64,000 bases of DNA. Source: Candidatus Daviesbacteria bacterium. GTDB lineage: Bacteria > Patescibacteriota > Microgenomatia > Daviesbacterales > UBA10151. The stretch spans positions 12,845-76,844 of the forward strand of contig JAUYKM010000016.1 in assembly GCA_030699125.1 (NCBI GenBank), given 5' to 3'. Made by a program: the position numbers and the translations under genes. Shown one piece after another: positions 4,847 through 63,326 of this stretch (position 1 is its first letter; each line of letters opens with the position of its first letter). The notes beneath the pieces are model-generated. The model had not been told where the DNA came from. It searched no databases and worked only from the letters and a program-made list of their open reading frames with translations.

Positions 4847-4882
4847 TTATTCCCACTCCATAGTTGCTGGGGGTTTGGTGGT
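4847..4882. repeat. Degenerate duplicate of the guaA 3' terminus (encodes ...TTKPPATMEWE-stop on minus strand)
   Basis: 36 nt at 4847-4882 (TTATTCCCACTCCATAGTTGCTGGGGGTTTGGTGGT) match guaA's last codons plus stop at 5432-5467 (TTACTCCCATTCCATAGTTGCTGGAGGTTTAGTGGT) at 32/36 positions. The two copies flank the DUF4258/zinc-ribbon gene pair. Confidence 0.8.
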
Positions 4883-4886
4883 AAAT

Positions 4887-5120
4887 TTAGAATTGAACTA
4901 CTGGTACATCTATTCTTGTAACAGAGCTTTTTCTTTTTAAAACTTCTTGAATTCTTTGATCAATTTGATGACTAACTTTAGCATCAAAATATCTTTCTCC
5001 ACATTTAGTACAAATTAAACTAGGCACATCATTTAATGCAATCAGTTCCTTTCCCCAATATCGAGCAATATCCACATTTTCTCTTTTTAATTTTCCACCA
5101 CATTGATAGCATTTATTCAT
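4887..5120 (-). CDS. YgiT-type (MqsA-like) zinc-ribbon protein, putative antitoxin
   Basis: 77 aa; CYQCGGKLK...VPSLICTKCGERYFD. Two CxxC pairs with the spacing of YgiT/MqsA N-terminal zinc ribbons. Lies directly downstream of a DUF4258 gene. Confidence 0.65.
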   Translation of the reverse strand: MNKCYQCGGKLKRENVDIARYWGKELIALNDVPSLICTKCGERYFDAKVSHQIDQRIQEVLKRKSSVTRIDVPVVQF

Positions 5121-5123
5121 ATT

Positions 5124-5441
5124 TCACCTCTTTCTAATTGTACCACCAATCCATTCTACTTGGCTAGGTATATAATTGGTAACAATCACAGGTTTACCAA
5201 ATCTTAAACCAATTACTACGTGAACCAATCTACCATCGTTAGTTTTACCAGCAATTAGCCTACTTTCTCCTCTTGGATCATCCAGTCTTTCCTCTATTAC
5301 TCTACCAGATAACACTACTTTTTCCACCTCTTGGGCTGTTAAATTATCTTTGGTTCTTTCTTCATCAGCATGATCAGAAAATAAATAATCTTTTTTCTTT
5401 ATTCGTCTTTGAATTTCTTTAAAAGTCATTGTTACTCCCAT
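5124..5441 (-). CDS. DUF4258-family protein, putative toxin of a type II TA-like pair
   Basis: FSDHADEERTKDN...VLSGRVIEE...GESRLIAGKTNDGRLVHVVIG...PVIVTNY fits the DUF4258 pattern. The likely true start is Met at 5429 (MTFKEIQ...), 2 nt after the guaA stop. The track's longer start at 5441 overlaps guaA. Confidence 0.65.
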   Translation of the reverse strand: MGVTMTFKEIQRRIKKKDYLFSDHADEERTKDNLTAQEVEKVVLSGRVIEERLDDPRGESRLIAGKTNDGRLVHVVIGLRFGKPVIVTNYIPSQVEWIGGTIRKR

Positions 5442-6970
5442 TCCATAGTTGCTGGAGGTTTAGTGGTGATGTCATAAACTACCCTGGAAACTCCCGGGAC
5501 TTCATTGACAATTCTGGAGGAAATTTTTTGCAAAATTTCATAGGGGATTTTGGACCAAACTGTAGTCATCACATCTTTGGACTCAATAATTCTTATTGCC
5601 ATAACTTCCAAGTGAGAGCGCTCATCACCTTTGACTGCCGTACTTTTGGTATCAGTTAAAATGGCAAAACTCATATAAACTTTATCGTAAAGATTGGCTT
5701 TTGTTACTTCCTCAACCACTATTGCATCAGCCTGTTGTTGTCTTTCCAAACGCTCTTTTGTCACTTCCCCAATAATCCGAATGGCTTGTCCAGGTCCTGG
5801 AAAAACTTGCTTGGAGACTACTTCATTTGGTAACCCCAGTTTTTCCCCAATCAATCTCACTTCATCTTTATAAAAATTTCTCAAAGGTTCCAAAAGCACA
5901 AGACTCATCTCATCCGGCAATCCCCCAACATTATGATGAGATTTAATCTTATCTGCCTTTTTGGTTCCCCTACTTTCAATCACATCAGAATAAATTGTTC
6001 CCTGGGCTAAAAACTTTACTCCCTTTAACTTTTTGGCCTCTCTTTCGAATAGTTTAATATAAAGAGCACCAATGGTTTTTCTTTTTTGCTCCGGATCTGT
6101 AATATCTTTGAGGGCAGAGAGAAACTGCTTTTTGGCATCAACAATAATGGGATTTAACCTTAGATGTTTTTGGAAAATTTGTAAAACTTCCTCTTTGGTG
6201 CCAATTCTCATCAACCCGCTTTCAATATAAATAGGATATAAATTTTTACCAATGGCTTGACCAATCAAAGCTGCCGCCACTGTTGAATCCACCCCCCCGG
6301 AAACTGCACAGATAACTTTATTATTTCCCACCTTCTGTTCTATATTTTCAATAATGGCATTAACATTGATTGATTGCTTAACGATTTTTTCTCCACAAAT
6401 ATTTTGGGCAAAGTTAATAAGAATTTTTAAACCAAAGACAGTGTGCATAACTTCCGGATGGAACTGCACCCCAAAAATCTTATTTCTTAAATCTGCCACT
6501 GCTGCTGCTTTAACAGAATCTGTTTCTCCTAAATATGTAAAACCTTTGGGGATGATCACCACGCTGTCTCCGTGACTAACCCAAACAACAGAGTTATTTT
6601 CCACGCCGGAAAGAATACCCCCTTCATTTATTATGATCAGGTTGGCCGGTCCATATTCTTTATGTCCTGAAACTACTTTACCTCCCAAAAGACGGGCTGT
6701 TAGCTGCCAACCGTAACAGATTCCAAGAATTGGAATTCCCAAACTGAAAATTTTTTTATCAATCGTGGGAGCGCCTTTACTGTATACAGATGCCGGACCT
6801 CCTGAAAGAATAATTCCAGCCACTTCATCGTCATTCCCGCGAAGGCGGGAATCCATAATAAACTTAACAGCATCTTCCGGATCAACAATCTTTACCAAAA
6901 CACCATGATCCCGAAGTCTTCTTCCAATTAAATGTGCAGTTTGTGACCCAAAATCAACTAGAGTTATCAT
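5432..6970 (-). CDS. guaA: GMP synthase (glutamine-hydrolysing)
   Basis: 512 aa; GATase GICYGWQ, PP-loop VSGGVDSTV, C-terminal ...PPATMEWE. Carries an in-frame palindromic-repeat insertion encoding MDSRLRGNDDE near the N-terminus. Confidence 0.92.
   Translation of the reverse strand: MITLVDFGSQTAHLIGRRLRDHGVLVKIVDPEDAVKFIMDSRLRGNDDEVAGIILSGGPASVYSKGAPTIDKKIFSLGIPILGICYGWQLTARLLGGKVVSGHKEYGPANLIIINEGGILSGVENNSVVWVSHGDSVVIIPKGFTYLGETDSVKAAAVADLRNKIFGVQFHPEVMHTVFGLKILINFAQNICGEKIVKQSINVNAIIENIEQKVGNNKVICAVSGGVDSTVAAALIGQAIGKNLYPIYIESGLMRIGTKEEVLQIFQKHLRLNPIIVDAKKQFLSALKDITDPEQKRKTIGALYIKLFEREAKKLKGVKFLAQGTIYSDVIESRGTKKADKIKSHHNVGGLPDEMSLVLLEPLRNFYKDEVRLIGEKLGLPNEVVSKQVFPGPGQAIRIIGEVTKERLERQQQADAIVVEEVTKANLYDKVYMSFAILTDTKSTAVKGDERSHLEVMAIRIIESKDVMTTVWSKIPYEILQKISSRIVNEVPGVSRVVYDITTKPPATMEWE
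6830..6854. repeat. GC-rich palindromic hairpin element GTCATTCCCGCGAAGGCGGGAATCC inserted in-frame in guaA
   Basis: 8-bp arms (ATTCCCGC/GCGGGAAT) around a 4-nt loop. Encodes MDSRLRGNDDE at a position where E. coli GuaA has no corresponding residues. Same family as 23340-23363, 43748-43771, 59323-59397. Confidence 0.75.
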
Positions 6971-23339: not shown

Positions 23340-23423
23340 GTCATTCCCGCGAAAGCGGGAATCTATATTTTATGGATCCCGCATCAAGTGCGGGATGACA
23401 GAGATCGTTGAGACGCCTCTGTC
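23340..23423. repeat. Cluster of three GC-rich hairpin repeats (GTCATTCCCGCGAAAGCGGGAATC; GGATCCCGCATCAAGTGCGGGATGAC; GACAGAG-N13-CTCTGTC) between ybaB and folD, overlapping the folD 3' end
   Basis: Perfect stems read directly. The last two units encode the folD C-terminal tail ...VTEASQRSLSSRT and span its stop codon (23384-23386). Confidence 0.75.
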
Positions 23424-38056: not shown

Positions 38057-39663
38057 AACTTCACTTTTGATGCAGCTTTGACAAAGCCTACGAATAATGG
38101 GTGAGGCGCGAGAGGTCTGGATTTTAATTCCGGATGAAATTGAGTGCCTATAAAAAACGGGTGATTTTTAAGCTCAATCACTTCCACTAATTTTCCATCA
38201 GGAGTTGTTCCCGAAACCATAAATCCTTTTTTCTCCAACTCATCTTTGAATTTATTATTAAACTCATATCTGTGTCGGTGTCTCTCGGAAATATCTTTTT
38301 TCCCATAAAGAGAGCAAGCTATACTTCCCTCCTTTAATACACAATCCCATGCCCCGAGTCTCATTGTAGCTCCATAGTTTCTCTCCAACAGCTTTTTCTC
38401 CTGATCCGGCATAATATGGATCACTGGATAGGCAGTTTTGGGATCGATCTCTGTGGTGTTGGCATCTTTGTATCCTAAAACATTTCTGGCAAATTCCACC
38501 GTGGCAAGCTGCATGCCGTAACATAAACCAAAATAAGGAATCTGATTTTCTCTGCAATATTTTATGGTAACAATTTTTCCTTCAATATCACGCGATCCAA
38601 AACCACCCGGTACTATAATCCCCTGAAAACCTTTTAGGATACTACCATCTTTCAAAACTTTCCCTGCATCAACCCAGTGGATCTCCGGCTTTAACCCTTG
38701 CGTCCAGGAAGCATGTTTAATTGCCTCAATTACTGATACGTATGCATCAGCCAGGGTATAATCCCCTGTTGCAAAATATTTACCAACAATGCCAATTTTT
38801 ACCACTTTCTTTGAATTATCAATTTTGGCAACGAAATCTTTCCAATCTTTTAGATCCTTTTGACTTTTCTTTAATTTTAATTTGCCTAAAATTTTCTGAA
38901 CTAAATTTTGCTCTTCATATCCTAAGGGAACTTTATAAATGCTGTCTACATCCGGGGCTGAAATTATGTATTCAGGATCCAAACCGGAGGAAACAGCCAA
39001 TTTTTTGCGTCTGAATTCATCTATTGGTTTTTCAGCTCGGGCTAAAATAATATCCGGTTGAATCCCTACCGCATTTAAATCTCTAACAGACATCTGAGCC
39101 GGCTTTGATTTTAATTCTCCAATTGAGGGAGGCACTGGTAAATAAGTTATATGAACATGAATCACATCATCGTGTTTTTTAAGTTTTAAAAGCCTGTTTG
39201 CCTCTAAAAATAACATATTTTGATACTCGCCTGCTGTTCCCCCAATCTCTACTAATACAACATCTGCATTCCTCATCTTTCCGGCTTGATGAATCCTTTC
39301 TATTATCTCCTCAGTCACATGATTAATATCCACAAATTCTCCGTCATATTCCAAATTTCTTTCTTTTTGTAAAACTGTCAGATAAATTGAACCTTGAGTA
39401 GCAATATTATTTTTATCCAAAGATTCATTTAGGAATCTTTCATAATGACCCAAGTCCTGGTCTGTTTCTATACCATCATCCAAGACAAACACCTCACCGT
39501 GTTCTATTGGGTTCATAGTGCCGGCATCAACATTTAAGTAGGGATCCATTTTTAAGGGAGAGACTTTAAATCCTGCTGATTTTAAAAGAAGGGCAATTGA
39601 GGCAGTAGCAATACCTTTACCAATTCCACTAATAACACCACCACTGACAAATATGTATTTCAT
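38053..39663 (-). CDS. pyrG: CTP synthase
   Basis: 536 aa; N-terminal IFVSGGVISGIGKGI, GATase GLCYGMQ. Confidence 0.92.
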   Translation of the reverse strand: MKYIFVSGGVISGIGKGIATASIALLLKSAGFKVSPLKMDPYLNVDAGTMNPIEHGEVFVLDDGIETDQDLGHYERFLNESLDKNNIATQGSIYLTVLQKERNLEYDGEFVDINHVTEEIIERIHQAGKMRNADVVLVEIGGTAGEYQNMLFLEANRLLKLKKHDDVIHVHITYLPVPPSIGELKSKPAQMSVRDLNAVGIQPDIILARAEKPIDEFRRKKLAVSSGLDPEYIISAPDVDSIYKVPLGYEEQNLVQKILGKLKLKKSQKDLKDWKDFVAKIDNSKKVVKIGIVGKYFATGDYTLADAYVSVIEAIKHASWTQGLKPEIHWVDAGKVLKDGSILKGFQGIIVPGGFGSRDIEGKIVTIKYCRENQIPYFGLCYGMQLATVEFARNVLGYKDANTTEIDPKTAYPVIHIMPDQEKKLLERNYGATMRLGAWDCVLKEGSIACSLYGKKDISERHRHRYEFNNKFKDELEKKGFMVSGTTPDGKLVEVIELKNHPFFIGTQFHPELKSRPLAPHPLFVGFVKAASKVKL

Positions 39664-39727
39664 TTATTTTGGGGAATCCGTCTAAATATGAGGTATTTTC
39701 GAGGCCCTCAATATAATACTAAATTCC

Positions 39728-39749
39728 GTTGATACTTGCAAGTATCAAC
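39728..39749. promoter_or_regulatory. Perfect 22-bp palindrome GTTGATACTTG|CAAGTATCAAC upstream of pyrG
   Basis: Read directly. Lies 65-86 nt upstream of the pyrG start codon and 14 nt downstream of the preceding gene's stop. Candidate operator or terminator hairpin. Confidence 0.45.
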
Positions 39750-39762
39750 TCCAGGTTACAGT

Positions 39763-40140
39763 TTAAATTTCATAACCAATCTTATTTCCCTCTAAGTGAT
39801 CTCTCAATGCTAATTCTCTTCCTGATCTAACGAAACTGGTACGAACTTCAAATGGTAGCCCAAATCCTGCTACTTCTTCTCTTAATTCTCTAGCGTATTG
39901 ACTAACCTTCCGAAGAGTGGGTTTTTCTAAGCCTTCTTCACTGGCTTCCTCAGTAAGTACACTCCATACAAAAACCCCAAAGGTTCCTTCTTTTTTTCCT
40001 CTTATAAAACCTTCGCTTATATATGTCTTCCGCGCTATTCCTAAATCTTCAACTTTCAATCCGTATGCTGATGTAGCTATTAAAAGACTCCATCCTGTTT
40101 TTGGTGGGTCTTCTCTTGCAGCTTCTAAATTAATTCCCAT
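39763..40140 (-). CDS. Hypothetical protein (125 aa)
   Basis: Intact ORF, no family recognised. Adjacent to the topA-3'-end remnant; possible cassette cargo. Confidence 0.4.
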   Translation of the reverse strand: MGINLEAAREDPPKTGWSLLIATSAYGLKVEDLGIARKTYISEGFIRGKKEGTFGVFVWSVLTEEASEEGLEKPTLRKVSQYARELREEVAGFGLPFEVRTSFVRSGRELALRDHLEGNKIGYEI

Positions 40141-40164
40141 AATTGCATTATATCACACTTCTTT

Positions 40165-40264
40165 AAAGTTGCGTACCCACACCCGGTGTGTGGTAGGTAG
40201 ACACCTCAGGTACAGTTACACCTTTAGGTTTCGTCCAGGAAGCAAATTTGCAGGTTGGCCTGTT
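40165..40264 (-). pseudogene. Remnant/duplicate of the topA 3' region (zinc-ribbon segment)
   Basis: 40224-40264 is about 85% identical (35/41) to topA 40851-40891. Minus-strand reading gives ...NRPTCKFASWTKPKG... versus TopA ...NWPVCKFASWTKPKS.... Also contains hairpin CCACAC-CCGG-TGTGTGG. Confidence 0.7.
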
Positions 40265-40544
40265 AACGAATTCTGTGAGAAATGGTAACTGATTGAACAG
40301 ACTCACCAGTTCTTCTTACACCTAATTTAGAGCCTAAAACCTGAGAGGCATTAAAAATTTCTATCCCTAAAAGTTCTCCCTTTTCGCCAAGCTCTAAACT
40401 AATATCAGGAGTAATCCCTCTGTGTTCCTCCTCAACACCACTTTTAATATTAAGCCACAAAATATCATGTTTTTTATCGTAATATACTTTTTGCTTAGTC
40501 TTCTTCATTTTTTGCCCACCTTCCTCTTTTAAGTTTATTTTCAA
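40263..40544 (-). CDS. DUF2283-family protein, putative antitoxin partner of DUF4258
   Basis: 93 aa; DILWLNIK...ELGEKGELLGIEIFNAS matches the DUF2283 signature. Confidence 0.6.
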   Translation of the reverse strand: MKINLKEEGGQKMKKTKQKVYYDKKHDILWLNIKSGVEEEHRGITPDISLELGEKGELLGIEIFNASQVLGSKLGVRRTGESVQSVTISHRIR

Positions 40545-40785
40545 TCTCTTGCCTGGAAGTAGGATAAATAGTAACAGCTTGAATCTCTAACTCCATTATA
40601 GCATAGGCCACAACCATTGGACGAAGCTTTCCATTATATTCCATGTTTTTTACAACAATATCATAACCAGTATCCAGATCTTTATATTTTTCTTCAGAAT
40701 TCTGAATAATAACTTTAGGATAACTTTGTGGGATTTTTCTTTCTTTAAGACGAATTTTAAGATGAGGTATTAAAACAATTTTCAT
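40495..40785 (-). CDS. DUF4258-family protein, putative toxin (second locus)
   Basis: Likely start at internal Met 40785 (MKIVLIPHLKIRLKERKI...), 13 nt after the topA stop. The track's longer ORF (to 40872) overlaps topA. H..R...R.I ... VV pattern of DUF4258. Overlaps the DUF2283 gene by 50 nt. Confidence 0.55.
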   Translation of the reverse strand: MKIVLIPHLKIRLKERKIPQSYPKVIIQNSEEKYKDLDTGYDIVVKNMEYNGKLRPMVVAYAIMELEIQAVTIYPTSRQEIENKLKRGRWAKNEED

Positions 40786-40798
40786 TTTATTAATGAGG

Positions 40799-42943
40799 TT
40801 ACTTCTCCCCTCCGGGGCTCGCAATGACAAGTTCTTCTGGTTTATCAGACTTAGGCTTTGTCCAAGAAGCAAACTTGCAGACTGGCCAGTTTTTGCAGCC
40901 GTAAAAAGTTTTACCCCTTCTGGTATGTCTGACTACAATATCCCCACCATCTTGCGGACACTTAACATCAATTATTTCCTCTAAAGCTTCTGTATGACGG
41001 CATTTGGGAAAAGTGGAACAGGCCAGAAATTTACCAAACTTCCCTATCCTTATCACTAATTCATTACCACACTCCGGACATTTTTTACCAGCCAGTTGGG
41101 GTTCTATTTTCATTTTTTCTGCTTCTTTAAATGTTAACTCCAATTTTTTCTCAAATGGCTGGTAAAATTGTCTAACGGTGGGACGCCACTGTCTTTCCCC
41201 ATTGGCTATCTCATCCAGTTCATCCTCCATCTGGGCAGTAAAAGAATAATCAACAATATCCGGAAAATATTCCACTATAAAATCATTAACAGTAAAACCT
41301 AATTCTGTTGGAATAAATCTTCTTTCCATTCGCTCAACATAAAATCTTTCTTGAATGGTAGAAATAATGGGAGCATAGGTGGAAGGCCTACCAATTCCCA
41401 ACTCTTCTAATTTTTTAATAAGTGATGCTTCATTATACCGGGGTAGTGGTTCGGTAAAATGTTGATCAGGTAAAAGTTGAATTAAATTTAGAGAATCATT
41501 TTCCAAAAGTTTTGGCAATATTTTTTGACCGGTATCTTTCTCTCCCGCTTCGCCCACGCCTTCAGCGTCGCTCTGCGCGAAGCGAGGCGAGTCATCTTCC
41601 AGTTTTTCTTTTTCATAAAGTTTTAGCCAACCATTAAATTTGATTACTGAACCAGTTGCTCGAAGAAGATAACTATCAGCAGTCACGTCAATTGTGGTTT
41701 GGTCTAAAATTGCCTCATTCATTTGACAGGCCACAAATCTTTTCCAAATTAATTCATATAACCTGATATGATCCTTATTAAATCCATTTCTGGTCCTTAG
41801 ATCCTCACTCCTGACTCCAACATCAGTCACCCTGATTGCCTCATGTGCTTCTTGAGCATTTTTGGATTTTGATTTATAAATCCTGGGTTTGGTAGGTAAA
41901 TATGATCGGCCCAAAAAATCTGCAATGAATTTGCGGACAGCAAGAATGGCCGAGGAAGATAAATTAACTGAATCAGTTCTCATATAAGTTATCAGTCCTT
42001 GTTCATATAAATTTTGCGCCACCATCATGGTTTTTTTAGCAGACATACCCAATCTGTTGGAAGCAGCTTGTTGCAGGGTAGAGGTAATAAAAGGCGGATA
42101 AGGGAAACGGCGAACTTCTTTCTGAGTGATTTTGGAAACCACATACTGAGCTTTTTCCAGATTTTTAACATGCCCATCTACCTCCTCCTTATTCTTAATT
42201 TCCAGCTTCTTGCTATTTTGTTCTATTAGGATAGCAACAAAGTGATTTTTGTCATTCTGAGGCGAAGCCGAAGAATCTCTCAACTTGTTTGAGTCTCGCA
42301 TTCGCGAGAGATCCTTCACTTCGTTCAGGATGACACTTTGTGTCAATTCCGCCTCAATACTCCAATACTCTTGCGCTTTAAAAGCCTTAACTTCCCTTTC
42401 TCTTTCCACAATCAACCGCAAAGCCACTGACTGAACCCTACCAGCAGAAAGTCCTTTTTTAATTTTTTGCCAAAGCAGGGGGGATAATTTATAACCAACT
42501 AACCGATCCAAAACTCTTCTGGCCACCTGGGCATCCACTAATTTCAGATCTATTTGACGGGGTTGATTAAAGGCCTCTCTTATAGCTTCTTCGGTAATCT
42601 CATGAAAAACAACACGCTTTATGTCTTCACTTTTCACTTTTCCCTTATCACTTATCACTTGTTCCAAATGCCAGGCAATTGCCTCACCTTCCCGGTCAGG
42701 GTCGGTGGCAAGCCACAATGTATCTGCACCCTCCATCTCTTTTTTCATCTCATTAACTCTTTTTCTTTTATCTCTGGGGATAACATATTGGGGTTCAAAA
42801 TCATGCTCTATATCTACCCCAAGCTCTGATTTTGGCAAATCCCTCACATGTCCCATTGAGGCCTCAATAGTGTATTTATCCCCCAAAAATTTTTGCAAGG
42901 TCCTGGCTTTGGTAGGTGATTCCACGATTACTAAATTATTCAT
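40799..42943 (-). CDS. topA: DNA topoisomerase I
   Basis: Toprim VIVESPTKARTLQKFLG, catalytic and C-terminal CxxC zinc ribbons. The true start is probably Met at 42943 (MNNLVIVESP...). The track ORF starts at a TTG (43000) and reads through an upstream palindromic repeat (ILRYTQNDREK). Two in-frame repeat insertions at 42251-42334 and 41540-41593. Confidence 0.9.
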   Translation of the reverse strand: MNNLVIVESPTKARTLQKFLGDKYTIEASMGHVRDLPKSELGVDIEHDFEPQYVIPRDKRKRVNEMKKEMEGADTLWLATDPDREGEAIAWHLEQVISDKGKVKSEDIKRVVFHEITEEAIREAFNQPRQIDLKLVDAQVARRVLDRLVGYKLSPLLWQKIKKGLSAGRVQSVALRLIVEREREVKAFKAQEYWSIEAELTQSVILNEVKDLSRMRDSNKLRDSSASPQNDKNHFVAILIEQNSKKLEIKNKEEVDGHVKNLEKAQYVVSKITQKEVRRFPYPPFITSTLQQAASNRLGMSAKKTMMVAQNLYEQGLITYMRTDSVNLSSSAILAVRKFIADFLGRSYLPTKPRIYKSKSKNAQEAHEAIRVTDVGVRSEDLRTRNGFNKDHIRLYELIWKRFVACQMNEAILDQTTIDVTADSYLLRATGSVIKFNGWLKLYEKEKLEDDSPRFAQSDAEGVGEAGEKDTGQKILPKLLENDSLNLIQLLPDQHFTEPLPRYNEASLIKKLEELGIGRPSTYAPIISTIQERFYVERMERRFIPTELGFTVNDFIVEYFPDIVDYSFTAQMEDELDEIANGERQWRPTVRQFYQPFEKKLELTFKEAEKMKIEPQLAGKKCPECGNELVIRIGKFGKFLACSTFPKCRHTEALEEIIDVKCPQDGGDIVVRHTRRGKTFYGCKNWPVCKFASWTKPKSDKPEELVIASPGGEK
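41540..41593. repeat. GC-rich imperfect hairpin inserted in-frame in topA (encodes DDSPRFAQSDAEGVGEAGEKDTG)
   Basis: CTCTCCCGCTTCGC...GCGAAGCGAGGCGAGTC. Local GC far above the AT-rich flanks; arms CGCTTCGC/GCGAAGCG. Confidence 0.55.
42251..42334. repeat. Composite ~84-nt long-arm palindromic element inserted in-frame in topA
   Basis: Left arm GTCATTCTGAGGCGAAGCCGAAGAATCTC pairs with the reverse complement of right arm GAGATCCTTCACTTCGTTCAGGATGAC. Central small palindrome TCTCGC-ATTC-GCGAGA. 28 codons encoding ...SVILNEVKDLSRMRDSNKLRDSSASPQNDKNH. Confidence 0.75.
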
Positions 42944-42961
42944 ATTAATTATCTTTTCTCT

Positions 42962-43005
42962 GTCATTCTGAGTGTAACGAAGAATCTCTTGCGAATGCAA
43001 GAATC
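42962..43005. repeat. Half-copy of the long-arm element plus small palindrome (GTCATTCTGAGTGTAACGAAGAATCTC TTGCGAATGCAAGAATC) in the topA 5' region
   Basis: Sequence similarity to the 42251 element left arm; TTGC-GAAT-GCAA hairpin. Confidence 0.65.
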
Positions 43006-61835: not shown

Positions 61836-62543
61836 ATGAAGAAATTAAAAGTTGCTTTCTTGGGCACACCATTATTCGTTCAGCCAATTAAAAAAGAATT
61901 GGCAAAATACTTTACCTCAGCAGAATCATTAAACGAAGCAGATCTGGCAGTAGTTGCAGCCTATGGCAAGATTTTAACCAAAGATGAGCTGGAAACCCCA
62001 AAATTTGGCTGTATTAATGTTCATCCATCGCTCTTACCCAAATATAGAGGCCCTTCACCTATCCAGCAAACCATTTTAAATGGAGATAAAGTAACCGGCA
62101 TTACCATTATCAAAATGGATGATAGAGTAGATCACGGACCCATTATTTATCAAGAGCAATTAGAGCTTGCTGACATTGATAATTTTGCTACTTTGAGTAA
62201 GAAAGTGTTTCAACGTTCAGCTGAGATTTTACCCAAAATTATTGAGGATTTTAGTACAGGAAGGATAAAAACCATACCACAAAATCACAATCAAGCTACA
62301 TATTGTGACAAACTAACCAGGGAAAGCGGCTATTTTGCTATTGATCATCCCCCGTCCACGGATAAATTGGAGAAAATGATCAGAGCCTACTATCCTTGGC
62401 CGGGAGTTTGGACTAAATGGAACGGGAAAATAGTCAAATTCCTCCCAGAAGATAGAATCCAAATGGAAGGCAAAAGGCCAATATCCAAAAAGGACTTCTT
62501 AAACGGCTATCCTAATTTCCCTATGAATAATACTCATAATTGA
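61836..62543 (+). CDS. fmt: Methionyl-tRNA formyltransferase (short form)
   Basis: 235 aa; INVHPSLLPKYRGPSPIQ formyltransferase motif. The C-terminal domain is shorter than in canonical ~310-aa Fmt. Confidence 0.8.
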   Translation: MKKLKVAFLGTPLFVQPIKKELAKYFTSAESLNEADLAVVAAYGKILTKDELETPKFGCINVHPSLLPKYRGPSPIQQTILNGDKVTGITIIKMDDRVDHGPIIYQEQLELADIDNFATLSKKVFQRSAEILPKIIEDFSTGRIKTIPQNHNQATYCDKLTRESGYFAIDHPPSTDKLEKMIRAYYPWPGVWTKWNGKIVKFLPEDRIQMEGKRPISKKDFLNGYPNFPMNNTHN

Positions 62544-62547
62544 ATTT

Positions 62548-62928
62548 TTGCAATTAAATTGTATAATCCTAACTTATATTATGTCTGGTCATCCTGAATC
62601 AACGCAATCAATGGATTTTAGAGATAAATTTAAACAGCTTCGTCAAAGAGTAGGAGTTGAACAAAAAACCATAGCCAAGGTAATCGACATACGCCGTGAA
62701 ACCTATAATAGGTGGGAGCGAGGAAAAGGAGATTCTTTAGTAAACGAGAAAATTATACTTTTGGCCGGTTTTATTCTCACTAAACTACAAACAGAGCCAG
62801 ACAGAGAAATACTTATTCAGGCAATTAAAGATGAAATACCCCGACCGCAAGTCCTTCAACTAAGAAAATCTTTACGAGGCAACTTATCCTTAATCAACCA
62901 ATTAAATAATAAATTATCTCATACTTAA
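62548..62928 (+). CDS. XRE-family HTH protein
   Basis: QKTIAKVIDIRRETYNRWERGK helix-turn-helix. The true start may be the internal Met at 62581. Confidence 0.5.
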   Translation: MQLNCIILTYIMSGHPESTQSMDFRDKFKQLRQRVGVEQKTIAKVIDIRRETYNRWERGKGDSLVNEKIILLAGFILTKLQTEPDREILIQAIKDEIPRPQVLQLRKSLRGNLSLINQLNNKLSHT

Positions 62929-62935
62929 ACCGATT

Positions 62936-63211
62936 CTACGATTTTCCATTATCTTCTGACATACCCAGCTGATCCAACCTGAAAATTTTTGACCTACCAT
63001 CTACATTTACTATACCTTGATAACCCATTGGCTGCCTTCTCTTTCTTGTTGAAGGACCAGACAAATAGTACGGTAGTAGTCTCGTAGTTTCCTCCTCAGA
63101 TAAAACTTGTAAGATAGGTTCTATGTCTCTAAAAATATGGCCGTCGGGAAGGATTTTTATAAATCCCGATTTATCTCCGTTGGTATTCCTAGTTTCTAAT
63201 CTATCAACCAT
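62936..63211 (-). CDS. Hypothetical protein (91 aa)
   Basis: Intact ORF convergent with the HTH gene; no family recognised. Confidence 0.3.
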   Translation of the reverse strand: MVDRLETRNTNGDKSGFIKILPDGHIFRDIEPILQVLSEEETTRLLPYYLSGPSTRKRRQPMGYQGIVNVDGRSKIFRLDQLGMSEDNGKS

Positions 63212-63326
63212 TTCGTTGTTATTCTATACCAGATAGAGGCTTAATTTCAATCTTAAACTTCCTAACCGGCTACCCCAATTTTCCTTTGATTTCTCTTTCC
63301 TAATAAAATTTATTATAATTTAAATC

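Follow-up and report, generated by a model that had tools for sequence, protein, structure and literature searches.

A putative toxin-antitoxin cassette inserted at the 3′ end of topA in Candidatus Daviesbacteria, flanked by a duplicate of the gene end, and its counterparts at other conserved genes

Introduction

How does a short stretch from a housekeeping gene's end come to lie a second time, several hundred nucleotides downstream, on the far side of two small genes? The question is raised by the region behind topA, the DNA topoisomerase I gene, in a 64,000-nt stretch of DNA from Candidatus Daviesbacteria (G+C 37%; the whole stretch is called the window, and all coordinates without a locus number refer to it). 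Two small genes resembling a toxin-antitoxin (TA) pair lie between topA and pyrG here, and are followed by a copy of a segment of topA; T denotes the copy within topA, and T′ the distal one. How small ‘addictive’ units with long target duplications of variable length enter a chromosome has been unsettled since 2000. The topA locus and its relatives provide many independent, datable examples in one bacterial group, and these show that the distal duplicate belongs to the mobile unit, that the two copies are of different origin, and that the cassette is exchanged between lineages, landing always at the same conserved gene end.

Results

A two-gene cassette has displaced the native end of topA

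On the minus strand, the order of features is topA, gene 1, gene 2, T′, a displaced tail, a 125-aa open reading frame (ORF), pyrG, tmk and dcd. The topA gene (43000..40799) encodes Pfam domains Toprim and Topoisom_bac and two copies of Zn_ribbon_Top1; it is listed at 733 aa, and the Met of MNNLVIVESP is probably its true start. T (40851..40891, minus strand), the proximal and functional copy, encodes NWPVCKFASWTKPK of the last zinc ribbon. It is followed by the present TopA tail, SDKPEELVIASPGGEK (40799..40850), ending in the topA stop codon at 40801-40799. Gene 1 (40495..40785, 96 aa), a putative toxin, starts with its ATG at 40785 after a gap of 13 nt and ends at 40495. Gene 2 (40263..40508, 81 aa), a putative antitoxin, has its ATG at 40508 and overlaps gene 1 by 14 nt; both are on the same strand as topA. 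These coordinates confirm an earlier sequence-only reading of the window, which had described a DUF4258 gene 13 nt past the topA stop and an overlapping DUF2283 gene.

T′ (40224..40264, minus strand) begins within the stop codon of gene 2 and is identical to T at 34 of 41 nt (83%), with a repeat spacing of 627 nt and the two cassette genes as the only genes between the copies. The local-alignment score of the pair was 23.5, against a mean of ~9.5 and a maximum of 14 for shuffled sequences (z ~12), and the repeat peptides NRPTCKFASWTKPKG and NWPVCKFASWTKPKS matched with a tblastn E=6e-6 within 5 kb. Read in the topA frame, T′ encodes NRPTCKFASWTKPK, and the frame continues in the minus-strand stretch 40163..40223 for 19 codons, GVTVPEVSTYHTPGVGTQL, to a stop at 40163. 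This displaced native tail weakly resembles the native TopA tails of two relatives, L121 (TVTSSTQ, then a stop) and L049, and is not alignable between lineages. Both the duplicated 41-nt segment and its continuation over about 20 codons like a displaced C-terminus, which the sequence-only reading had proposed, are thus borne out. The 125-aa ORF that follows (39763..40140, minus strand) is lineage-specific native sequence with a GTGATATAAT box of its own and marks the distal border of the insertion; a look-up of it returned only an identical Logan contig.

A short repeat in a metagenome-assembled genome (MAG) could be suspected of being a chance similarity or an assembly artefact. The z-score against shuffles and the recurrence of the structure, with diverged copies, in independent assemblies from different samples and assemblers effectively refute this explanation.

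A scan of the coding strand from topA to the end of gene 2 showed no sigma-70-like promoter and no intrinsic terminator. Since no promoter-like or terminator-like site lies between them, co-transcription of the cassette with topA is plausible; going by the sequence, the cassette is probably promoterless and read from the topA transcript. There are no terminal inverted repeats at the cassette ends. An Rfam scan of 39500-41200 gave a single match, to a plant miRNA family below threshold and inside topA (41067-41180), which is almost certainly spurious. A 16-nt inverted repeat in the zinc-ribbon region of topA (41083-41098 and 41152-41167) underlies it.

Silent sites indicate a cassette younger than the genes on either side

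Gene 1 homologues at 80-85% identity were all found between topA and pyrG, adjoining a DUF2283 gene, with clpB-like, topA, pyrG and tmk as the neighbours at topA loci. We compared fourfold-degenerate sites among the window's own locus and the loci L002, L005 and L009. Identity at these sites was 0.39-0.47 in topA (~200 sites) and 0.35-0.50 in pyrG, as against 0.57-0.88 in gene 1 and 0.61-0.79 in gene 2 (19-34 sites per gene pair in both); the identity expected by chance from composition was 0.33 for the cassette and 0.27 for topA. When silent sites were pooled for the window and L002, 38/60 in the cassette and 86/221 in the host were identical (Fisher p=0.001). The lower silent divergence of the cassette implies that it is younger than the split of its hosts, and yet it occupies the same site in each of them.

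What moves along with the two genes can be read from the flanks. The tail between T and gene 1 is alignable among the window, L005 and L002; it also resembles the native TopA tail of L043, a locus without the cassette. At the other end, the junction of gene 2 and T′ (cgtTAAcagg) is common to the window and L002, as is a derived TGG>AGG change, and 35 of 42 positions agree between their T′ copies. Directly past T′, the sequence is not alignable among the window, L002 and L009. As the proximal tail and T′ are shared and the distal tail is not, the travelling unit consists of tail, gene 1, gene 2 and T′, and the distal tail, as judged by sequence comparison, is the recipient's own. Taken together, the silent sites and the flanks show that the cassette has been exchanged horizontally and that T′ is linked to it, with distal tails specific to each host. 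In a matrix of T and T′ identities (15 sequences), the strong conservation of the coding motif kept gene conversion and shared ancestry from being told apart.

The same loci bear on the account in which the cassette was inserted once, long ago, in a common forebear of the Daviesbacteria that carry it, and was passed on by vertical descent only, with T′ as a slowly decaying fossil. All homologues at 80-85% identity do share the topA-pyrG site and the junction, and the preservation of T′ varies: in L002 it is 34 nt long and 88% identical (VNRSVCKFASWTKPKSNKHEPVI...), in L009 it has decayed to 30-37 nt at 76%, and in L005 it is absent. However, descent from one insertion does not sit with the silent sites, whose divergence is much lower in the cassette than in the adjoining topA and pyrG, nor with a T′ that is 83% identical between the window and L002 next to neutral sequence that cannot be aligned. 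Most species representatives of Daviesbacteria do not have the cassette, and its distant homologues are found in other contexts with other duplicates. We therefore give vertical descent alone little credence.

The present TopA tail and the proximal tails of its relatives contain one arm of a palindromic repeat resembling a miniature transposable element with inverted repeats (MITE; GTCATTGCGAGC...), which travels with the cassette. Repeats of this kind (GTCAT[TC]C[TC]GA... / ...TCAG[AG]ATGAC) were seen at 42251-42334, 42962-43000, 23340-23399, ~6830 and 40800-40828, the last being the half-element that forms the tail. One has been inserted into topA without breaking the frame (VILNEVKDL...SPQNDK), a second is found at the N-terminus of topA as listed, and a third in guaA (SRLRGNDD); related ‘VIASEAKQS’ tails terminate TopA in several relatives. 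The sequence after T′ in L002 holds a complete palindromic repeat element, of which no copy was found in the window within 3 mismatches.

Empty and occupied sites between topA and pyrG

Species-representative genomes were scanned with the TopA C-terminus, and ~42 Daviesbacteria-like loci with topA-pyrG synteny were obtained. In four of them (L040, L045, L046 and L061) the site is empty, with topA containing a single T and followed after 60 nt by pyrG. Across the Daviesbacteria-like loci (L036-L076, L087), the spacer between topA and pyrG measured 60-2243 nt and exceeded 150 nt in more than half, which makes this position a hotspot for small inserts of varied kinds. In most of them no topA remnant is recognisable; a protein-motif search of the other occupied spacers for decayed remnants yielded only doubtful ones, in L062 and L074. 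The pair of gene 1 and gene 2 was present in only one species representative of the scanned set. Many of the records (L038, L039, L041 and others) are ‘binchicken’ MAGs titled ‘uncultured Gammaproteobacteria bacterium’; they carry topA-pyrG loci of the Daviesbacteria type, and their titles look mislabelled.

A different cassette has used the same gene end. In L068 (4115-5184), a pair of genes that is not of TA type (HIT-like and cytidylyltransferase-like) lies behind topA and is followed by KFASWTKPKK and a stop; L075 (4110-4476) is its empty counterpart. The boundary of the L068 cassette at topA lies 14 nt from that of the window cassette. The first 23 nt of T and T′ in L068 are identical and about 5 of the next 11 differ, a mosaic that is expected from a crossover between diverged gene ends and not from a simple fill-in duplication. 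Comparison of the topA-pyrG neighbourhoods, which the sequence-only reading had named as a check, thus produced empty sites and decayed remnants in agreement with insertion; on the other side, it produced a copy of the topA end without any cassette in L073, an outcome that the sequence-only reading had named as grounds for refutation, but a single weak case that is taken up below.

Cassettes of the same kind lie behind other conserved genes

More remote relatives of gene 1 (50-63% identity), each paired with a DUF2283 gene, were found in several other contexts, so that the pair is known from at least four unrelated ones: Daviesbacteria-type topA, Levybacteria-type topA, ftsH, where it is inverted, and an intergenic site. 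In most of these, a duplicate of the local sequence flanks the pair. In L026 it lies behind a Levybacteria-type topA, and the very end of this gene is duplicated in its flank over 52 nt (77%). Downstream of ftsH, the ftsH-end duplicate is 49 nt at 92% in L030 and 34 nt at 91% in L032. In L013 and L017 the pair lies between a 94-aa gene and an NmeDI-like gene, and the flanking duplicate (46 nt, 96%) repeats the sequence immediately upstream of the start codons. In L013 (5509-5652) we also noted that 111 nt separate the distal repeat from the DUF2283 stop; this segment is bracketed by a duplicate, 15 nt long, of the gene's own 3′ end (CACAGGATTAAATAA), a sign of a small secondary insertion, and CCACAGGATTAA also ends the 94-aa gene upstream.

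The window itself contains two further loci of this layout. The guaA locus (4847..5467, minus strand), for which the sequence-only reading had proposed the same architecture, has it indeed: guaA (6970..5432) is followed by a DUF4258 gene (5429(5441)..5124; Pfam 1.3e-16) and a YgiT/MqsA-type zinc-finger gene (5120..4887; TIGR03831, 3e-11), all on the minus strand, and T′ (4847-4882, minus strand), 4 nt past the zinc-finger gene's stop, copies the last 36 nt of guaA with the stop codon included (T, 5432-5467; 32/36 identical, 89%). A third case, the fmt locus (62494..63289, plus strand), came to light in a sensitive scan that covered every ORF end of the window. Here fmt (61836..62543, plus strand; T, 62494-62526) is followed by an HTH_3 gene (62581..62928, plus strand), a 91-aa gene without a family on the opposite strand (63211..62936) and a 33-nt T′ (63257-63289, plus strand; 82% identical to 62494-62526), which reads FLTGYPNFPL... 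(Fmt: FLNGYPNFPM) and runs on into a displaced Fmt C-terminus.

The DUF4258 and YgiT pair of the guaA type has 164 homologues at E<=1e-10. Downstream of uvrB it is inverted and accompanied by a 74-nt, 88% duplicate of the uvrB end (80 nt counting the stop codon), and behind dnaJ by a 22-nt duplicate that includes the stop codon. Cassettes can also be stacked. In L030 (1959-3760) and L032 (1477-3800), three copies of the ftsH end each are found, and the cassettes they separate are vapBC (PIN and MazE-type), a higBA-like pair (Gp49/HigB-like and helix-turn-helix) and the pair of gene 1 and gene 2; in L030, an ftsH remnant has been fused to VapC and forms its C-terminus (EFEKIVGKKKVS). When 358 ORF ends were scanned in loci around topA from bacteria of the Candidate Phyla Radiation (CPR; 381 kb in all), topA was the only gene with end duplicates.

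The distal junction is tight in every case, with the cassette ORF boundary 0-23 nt from the start of the distal copy. The repeats themselves vary in length from 22 to 80 nt, and those at topA, guaA, fmt, ftsH, uvrB and dnaJ have no motif or core in common. Inspection by eye of the junctions of cassette and T′ showed no microhomology that was consistent from one locus to another. No integrase or transposase was found within ~5 kb of any of the loci examined. Variable repeat length, together with the lack of terminal inverted repeats and of a shared motif, argues against a transposase or an integrase of single specificity. These loci show that insertion with a displaced gene end recurs at several genes. 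With duplicated ends at several genes and a cassette younger than its hosts, they uphold the earlier proposal of a recurrent mobile TA-like module at gene 3′ ends whose mobilisation machinery is not encoded in cis. That proposal had also called the module site-directed; homology carried by the element explains this better than a targeting enzyme does.

Elements of this kind could still be moved by an enzyme encoded elsewhere, that is, they could be non-autonomous integrative elements (cis-mobilisable elements, CIMEs, or satellites) that depend on tyrosine or serine integrases in trans, the gene-end duplicates being attL and attR. Integrase-driven islands typically target the 3′ ends of tRNA or protein genes, guaA included, and element DNA restores the gene end. 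Repeats of 20-80 nt would suit att identity blocks, and the T′ of L026 starts on the same Asn codon of N-[WY]-P-x-C as that of the window, so that two topA lineages share a boundary codon, behind which a site preference may lie. The body of the L026 T′ is, however, of the local type, and the shared boundary fits a T′ that is refreshed by the T of each recipient. Set against integrases in trans are the lack of one in or within ~5 kb of any locus, the at least six specificities that would be needed at the six genes without a common core, the boundary of the L068 cassette 14 nt away at the same gene, and the lack of inverted repeats or arm-type sites at the cassette ends. On balance, trans-acting integrases are quite improbable.

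A second alternative is a true long target-site duplication, in which the target is duplicated, for instance through two nicks 20-80 nt apart or a template switch during repair, while a linear cassette is ligated in and the gaps are filled. It has a precedent in what has been proposed for restriction-modification units (PMC2853133). It would explain readily why one cassette family is flanked by duplicates of unrelated targets, why the 46-nt duplicate at the intergenic site of L013 is nearly perfect, and why L073, with two copies 6 nt apart, resembles an excision footprint. At topA, however, the insert brings with it, ahead of gene 1, a foreign tail of the topA type that adjoins T, and the continuations of T and T′ are unrelated; mismatches in L068 cluster at one repeat end, and T′ is linked to the cassette across lineages. 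The foreign tail, the clustered mismatches and the linked T′ point to recombination between diverged homologues rather than to one target copied twice. We consider the duplication account unlikely.

Gene 1 and gene 2 as a putative toxin-antitoxin pair

Gene 2 matches DUF2283 (PF10049) over the full profile with E=1.7e-10 and 41.4 bits, above the gathering threshold of 23 bits. Gene 1 has no Pfam or NCBIfam match of its own and thus scores nothing against DUF4258 (PF14076; gathering threshold 25 bits), the family to which the sequence-only reading had assigned it. The label finds backing among its relatives. The gene 1 family comprises 28 proteins in a large database; in an alignment of 25 of them, H8, R12, R16, Y22, D36, Y50, K53, R55, R89 and W90 are invariant. 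Sub-threshold DUF4258 matches were obtained for 13/25 (best E=0.004), and the BECR nuclease family PBECR2 was matched by 6/25. A paralogue in L121, 40% identical to gene 1, scored 19.1 bits over positions 1-68 of 71 of the DUF4258 profile.

The AlphaFold (AF2) model of gene 1 has a predicted local distance difference test score (pLDDT) of 94.5. When it was compared with the PDB by Foldseek, the best matches were toxins of the RelE superfamily (7vd7_A, HigB2, YoeB, MqsR and Cami1), all of them weak (template-modelling score 0.42-0.52, E >=0.03). From the predicted fold and the profile matches of its relatives, it is reasonable to see in gene 1 a divergent DUF4258 relative with a probable RelE/BECR fold and a putative toxin, outside formal membership of the family. 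The two ‘DUF4258’ proteins of the window, which the sequence-only reading had treated as counterparts, do not hold together: gene 1 shows no BLASTP similarity to the guaA-locus protein, their flanks have no motif in common, and by sequence the two belong to different cassette families.

The pair has the layout of a type II TA module, with genes that are small, adjacent, co-oriented and always co-occurring; gene 2 adjoins gene 1 in every locus long enough to show it. We infer a toxin-antitoxin activity for it. An exact-sequence look-up of either gene returned nothing, and gene calls elsewhere use other starts.

Discussion

How the cassette may have entered

We favour a TA cassette that needs no recombinase of its own and enters by recombination within a conserved gene end, the duplicate serving as a portable homology arm, and we rate the chances of this at about even. 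A crossover inside the conserved last zinc-ribbon codons of topA, that is, within T, would have let the cassette into the chromosome. The incoming DNA would have brought its own topA end (T with a new tail), the two genes and a second copy of T, which is T′; the resident native tail would have been pushed downstream, where it survives as T′ and the 19-codon remnant. In the resulting unit of T, tail, gene 1, gene 2 and T′, both T copies would match the same gene end in any related genome. Because they match it on both sides, host homologous recombination could insert the unit anew and regenerate the structure. This could happen by double crossover after uptake by transformation, with T′ as the right arm, or equally by single-crossover integration of a T-cassette circle formed by recombination between T and T′, and repeated entry could lead to arrays of the form T-cassette-T-cassette-T. 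Loss of the cassette by deletion between T and T′ would be penalised by the TA pair. A new T/T′ pair at a new gene would most likely arise through an illegitimate, homology-facilitated joint within the gene end, as has been proposed for displacement arrays at Rhs and type VI secretion system (T6SS) loci (PMC5361080).

RecA and natural transformation would be the machinery for these steps. None of the repeats found here is shorter than the minimum that RecA can use. The com genes are conserved throughout the CPR, and Saccharibacteria have been shown to undergo natural transformation with homology arms (PMC10633639).

Several observations weigh against entry by a portable homology arm. A search through homologues of the 125-aa ORF for an empty site in a very close relative found none and led instead to L121 (1-700), a close relative that shares the ORF and has a variant cassette without T′. 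Its cassette sits at the topA stop codon, with the stop overlapping the ATG; the toxin is 40% identical to gene 1, and the antitoxin is a mosaic whose C-terminal 34 aa are 79% identical and the remainder ~30%. In L073 (4127-4189), the last 29 nt of topA are repeated in tandem, 6 nt past the stop, with no cassette; this could be an excision scar or unrelated slippage. A flanking repeat is undetectable in 5 contexts of the gene 1 and gene 2 pair, about half of all. The silent-site samples in the cassette are small, at 19-34 sites per gene pair, and when the topA codons upstream of T were examined in a sliding window, silent divergence did not fall off toward T, so that the left crossover must lie within T or very close to it. 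As T is short and 75-90% identical between lineages, RecA-dependent exchange should be rare. No circular or linear intermediate and no population polymorphic for empty and filled sites was observed. Lastly, the proposed route leaves the origin of T/T′ pairs at new genes unexplained, and likewise the lack of long duplicates, for which the instability of long repeats is an assumption.

If the homology arm is real, accessory genes would spread among ultrasmall, transformable CPR bacteria without a dedicated mobility enzyme, and the 3′ ends of essential genes would be their natural landing pads. The broader notion, a class of recombinase-free mobile cassettes that use a portable gene-end homology arm and host recombination after transformation and build integron-like arrays in the CPR, seems to us somewhat less than evenly balanced; if correct, it would also explain how ‘insertion with long target duplication’ comes about. 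Saccharibacteria, which are genetically tractable, offer a direct test of the model. A gene-end duplicate downstream of a conserved gene is also a simple signature by which recently acquired cassettes can be recognised in metagenomes.

Comparison with known systems

We found no description in the open-access literature of TA cassettes flanked by duplicated ends of housekeeping genes, in the CPR or elsewhere. Taken by itself, the pair resembles type II TA modules with a RelE/BECR toxin: two small overlapping genes, the toxin first, a predicted RelE-like fold, and a DUF2283 or a YgiT/MqsA-like zinc-ribbon partner. It differs in that the toxin of the window falls under the Pfam threshold of DUF4258 and that its activity is putative.

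The locus lacks the hallmarks of transposons, insertion sequences and MITEs, namely terminal inverted repeats and a short duplication of fixed length, the duplications here being 22-80 nt. Islands moved by integrases and cis-mobilisable elements are similar in that direct repeats duplicate the 3′ end of the target and element DNA restores the gene end; unlike them, the units described here measure ~0.6 kb and have variable boundaries, no integrase in cis within ~5 kb and no att core shared among the six genes, and an integrase acting in trans has a correspondingly small probability. Integron cassettes are likewise compact, apparently promoterless ORFs arrayed past a fixed point, and TA cassettes are common among them. 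At the topA locus, however, there is no attC inverted-repeat site and no platform of intI and attI, and the repeat between cassettes is a host gene end that differs from locus to locus.

The closest likeness in structure is to the insertion of restriction-modification units with long target duplication (Nobusato et al., 2000, Gene 259:99; Furuta, Abe & Kobayashi, 2010, PMC2853133). These units have no mobility gene and are flanked by direct repeats of >30 bp and of varying length that are single-copy at the empty site, one of them a 46-bp repeat overlapping a gene 3′ end in H. influenzae; most cases are from transformable bacteria, the mechanism was left unexplained, and a repeat-based life cycle was proposed (PMC2853133). 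Furuta et al. (2010) looked for direct repeats of >30 bp around an insert of <20 kb without a mobility gene, single-copy at the empty site. The topA locus agrees with this description in repeat, insert and empty site, and departs from it in carrying no restriction-modification genes. Both are small ‘addictive’ units without a mobility gene and with long direct repeats of variable length. The cargo here, however, consists of TA pairs and once of HIT and cytidylyltransferase genes, the targets are coding 3′ ends of housekeeping genes whose C-terminus is displaced, the continuations of the two copies differ, the distal copy is linked to the cassette, arrays occur, and the host belongs to the CPR.

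Displaced C-termini and orphan modules are known from Rhs/CdiA and T6SS effector-immunity loci (Jackson et al., 2009; Kirchberger et al., 2017, PMC5361080). There too, homology to a conserved part of the resident gene anchors the incoming DNA, the old 3′ end is displaced downstream together with a short conserved piece, as found at topA, and successive events lead to arrays. In those systems the variable part is the toxin domain of the gene itself with its immunity gene, whereas at topA the resident, a housekeeping enzyme, keeps its function, and the cassette brought in is unrelated to it.

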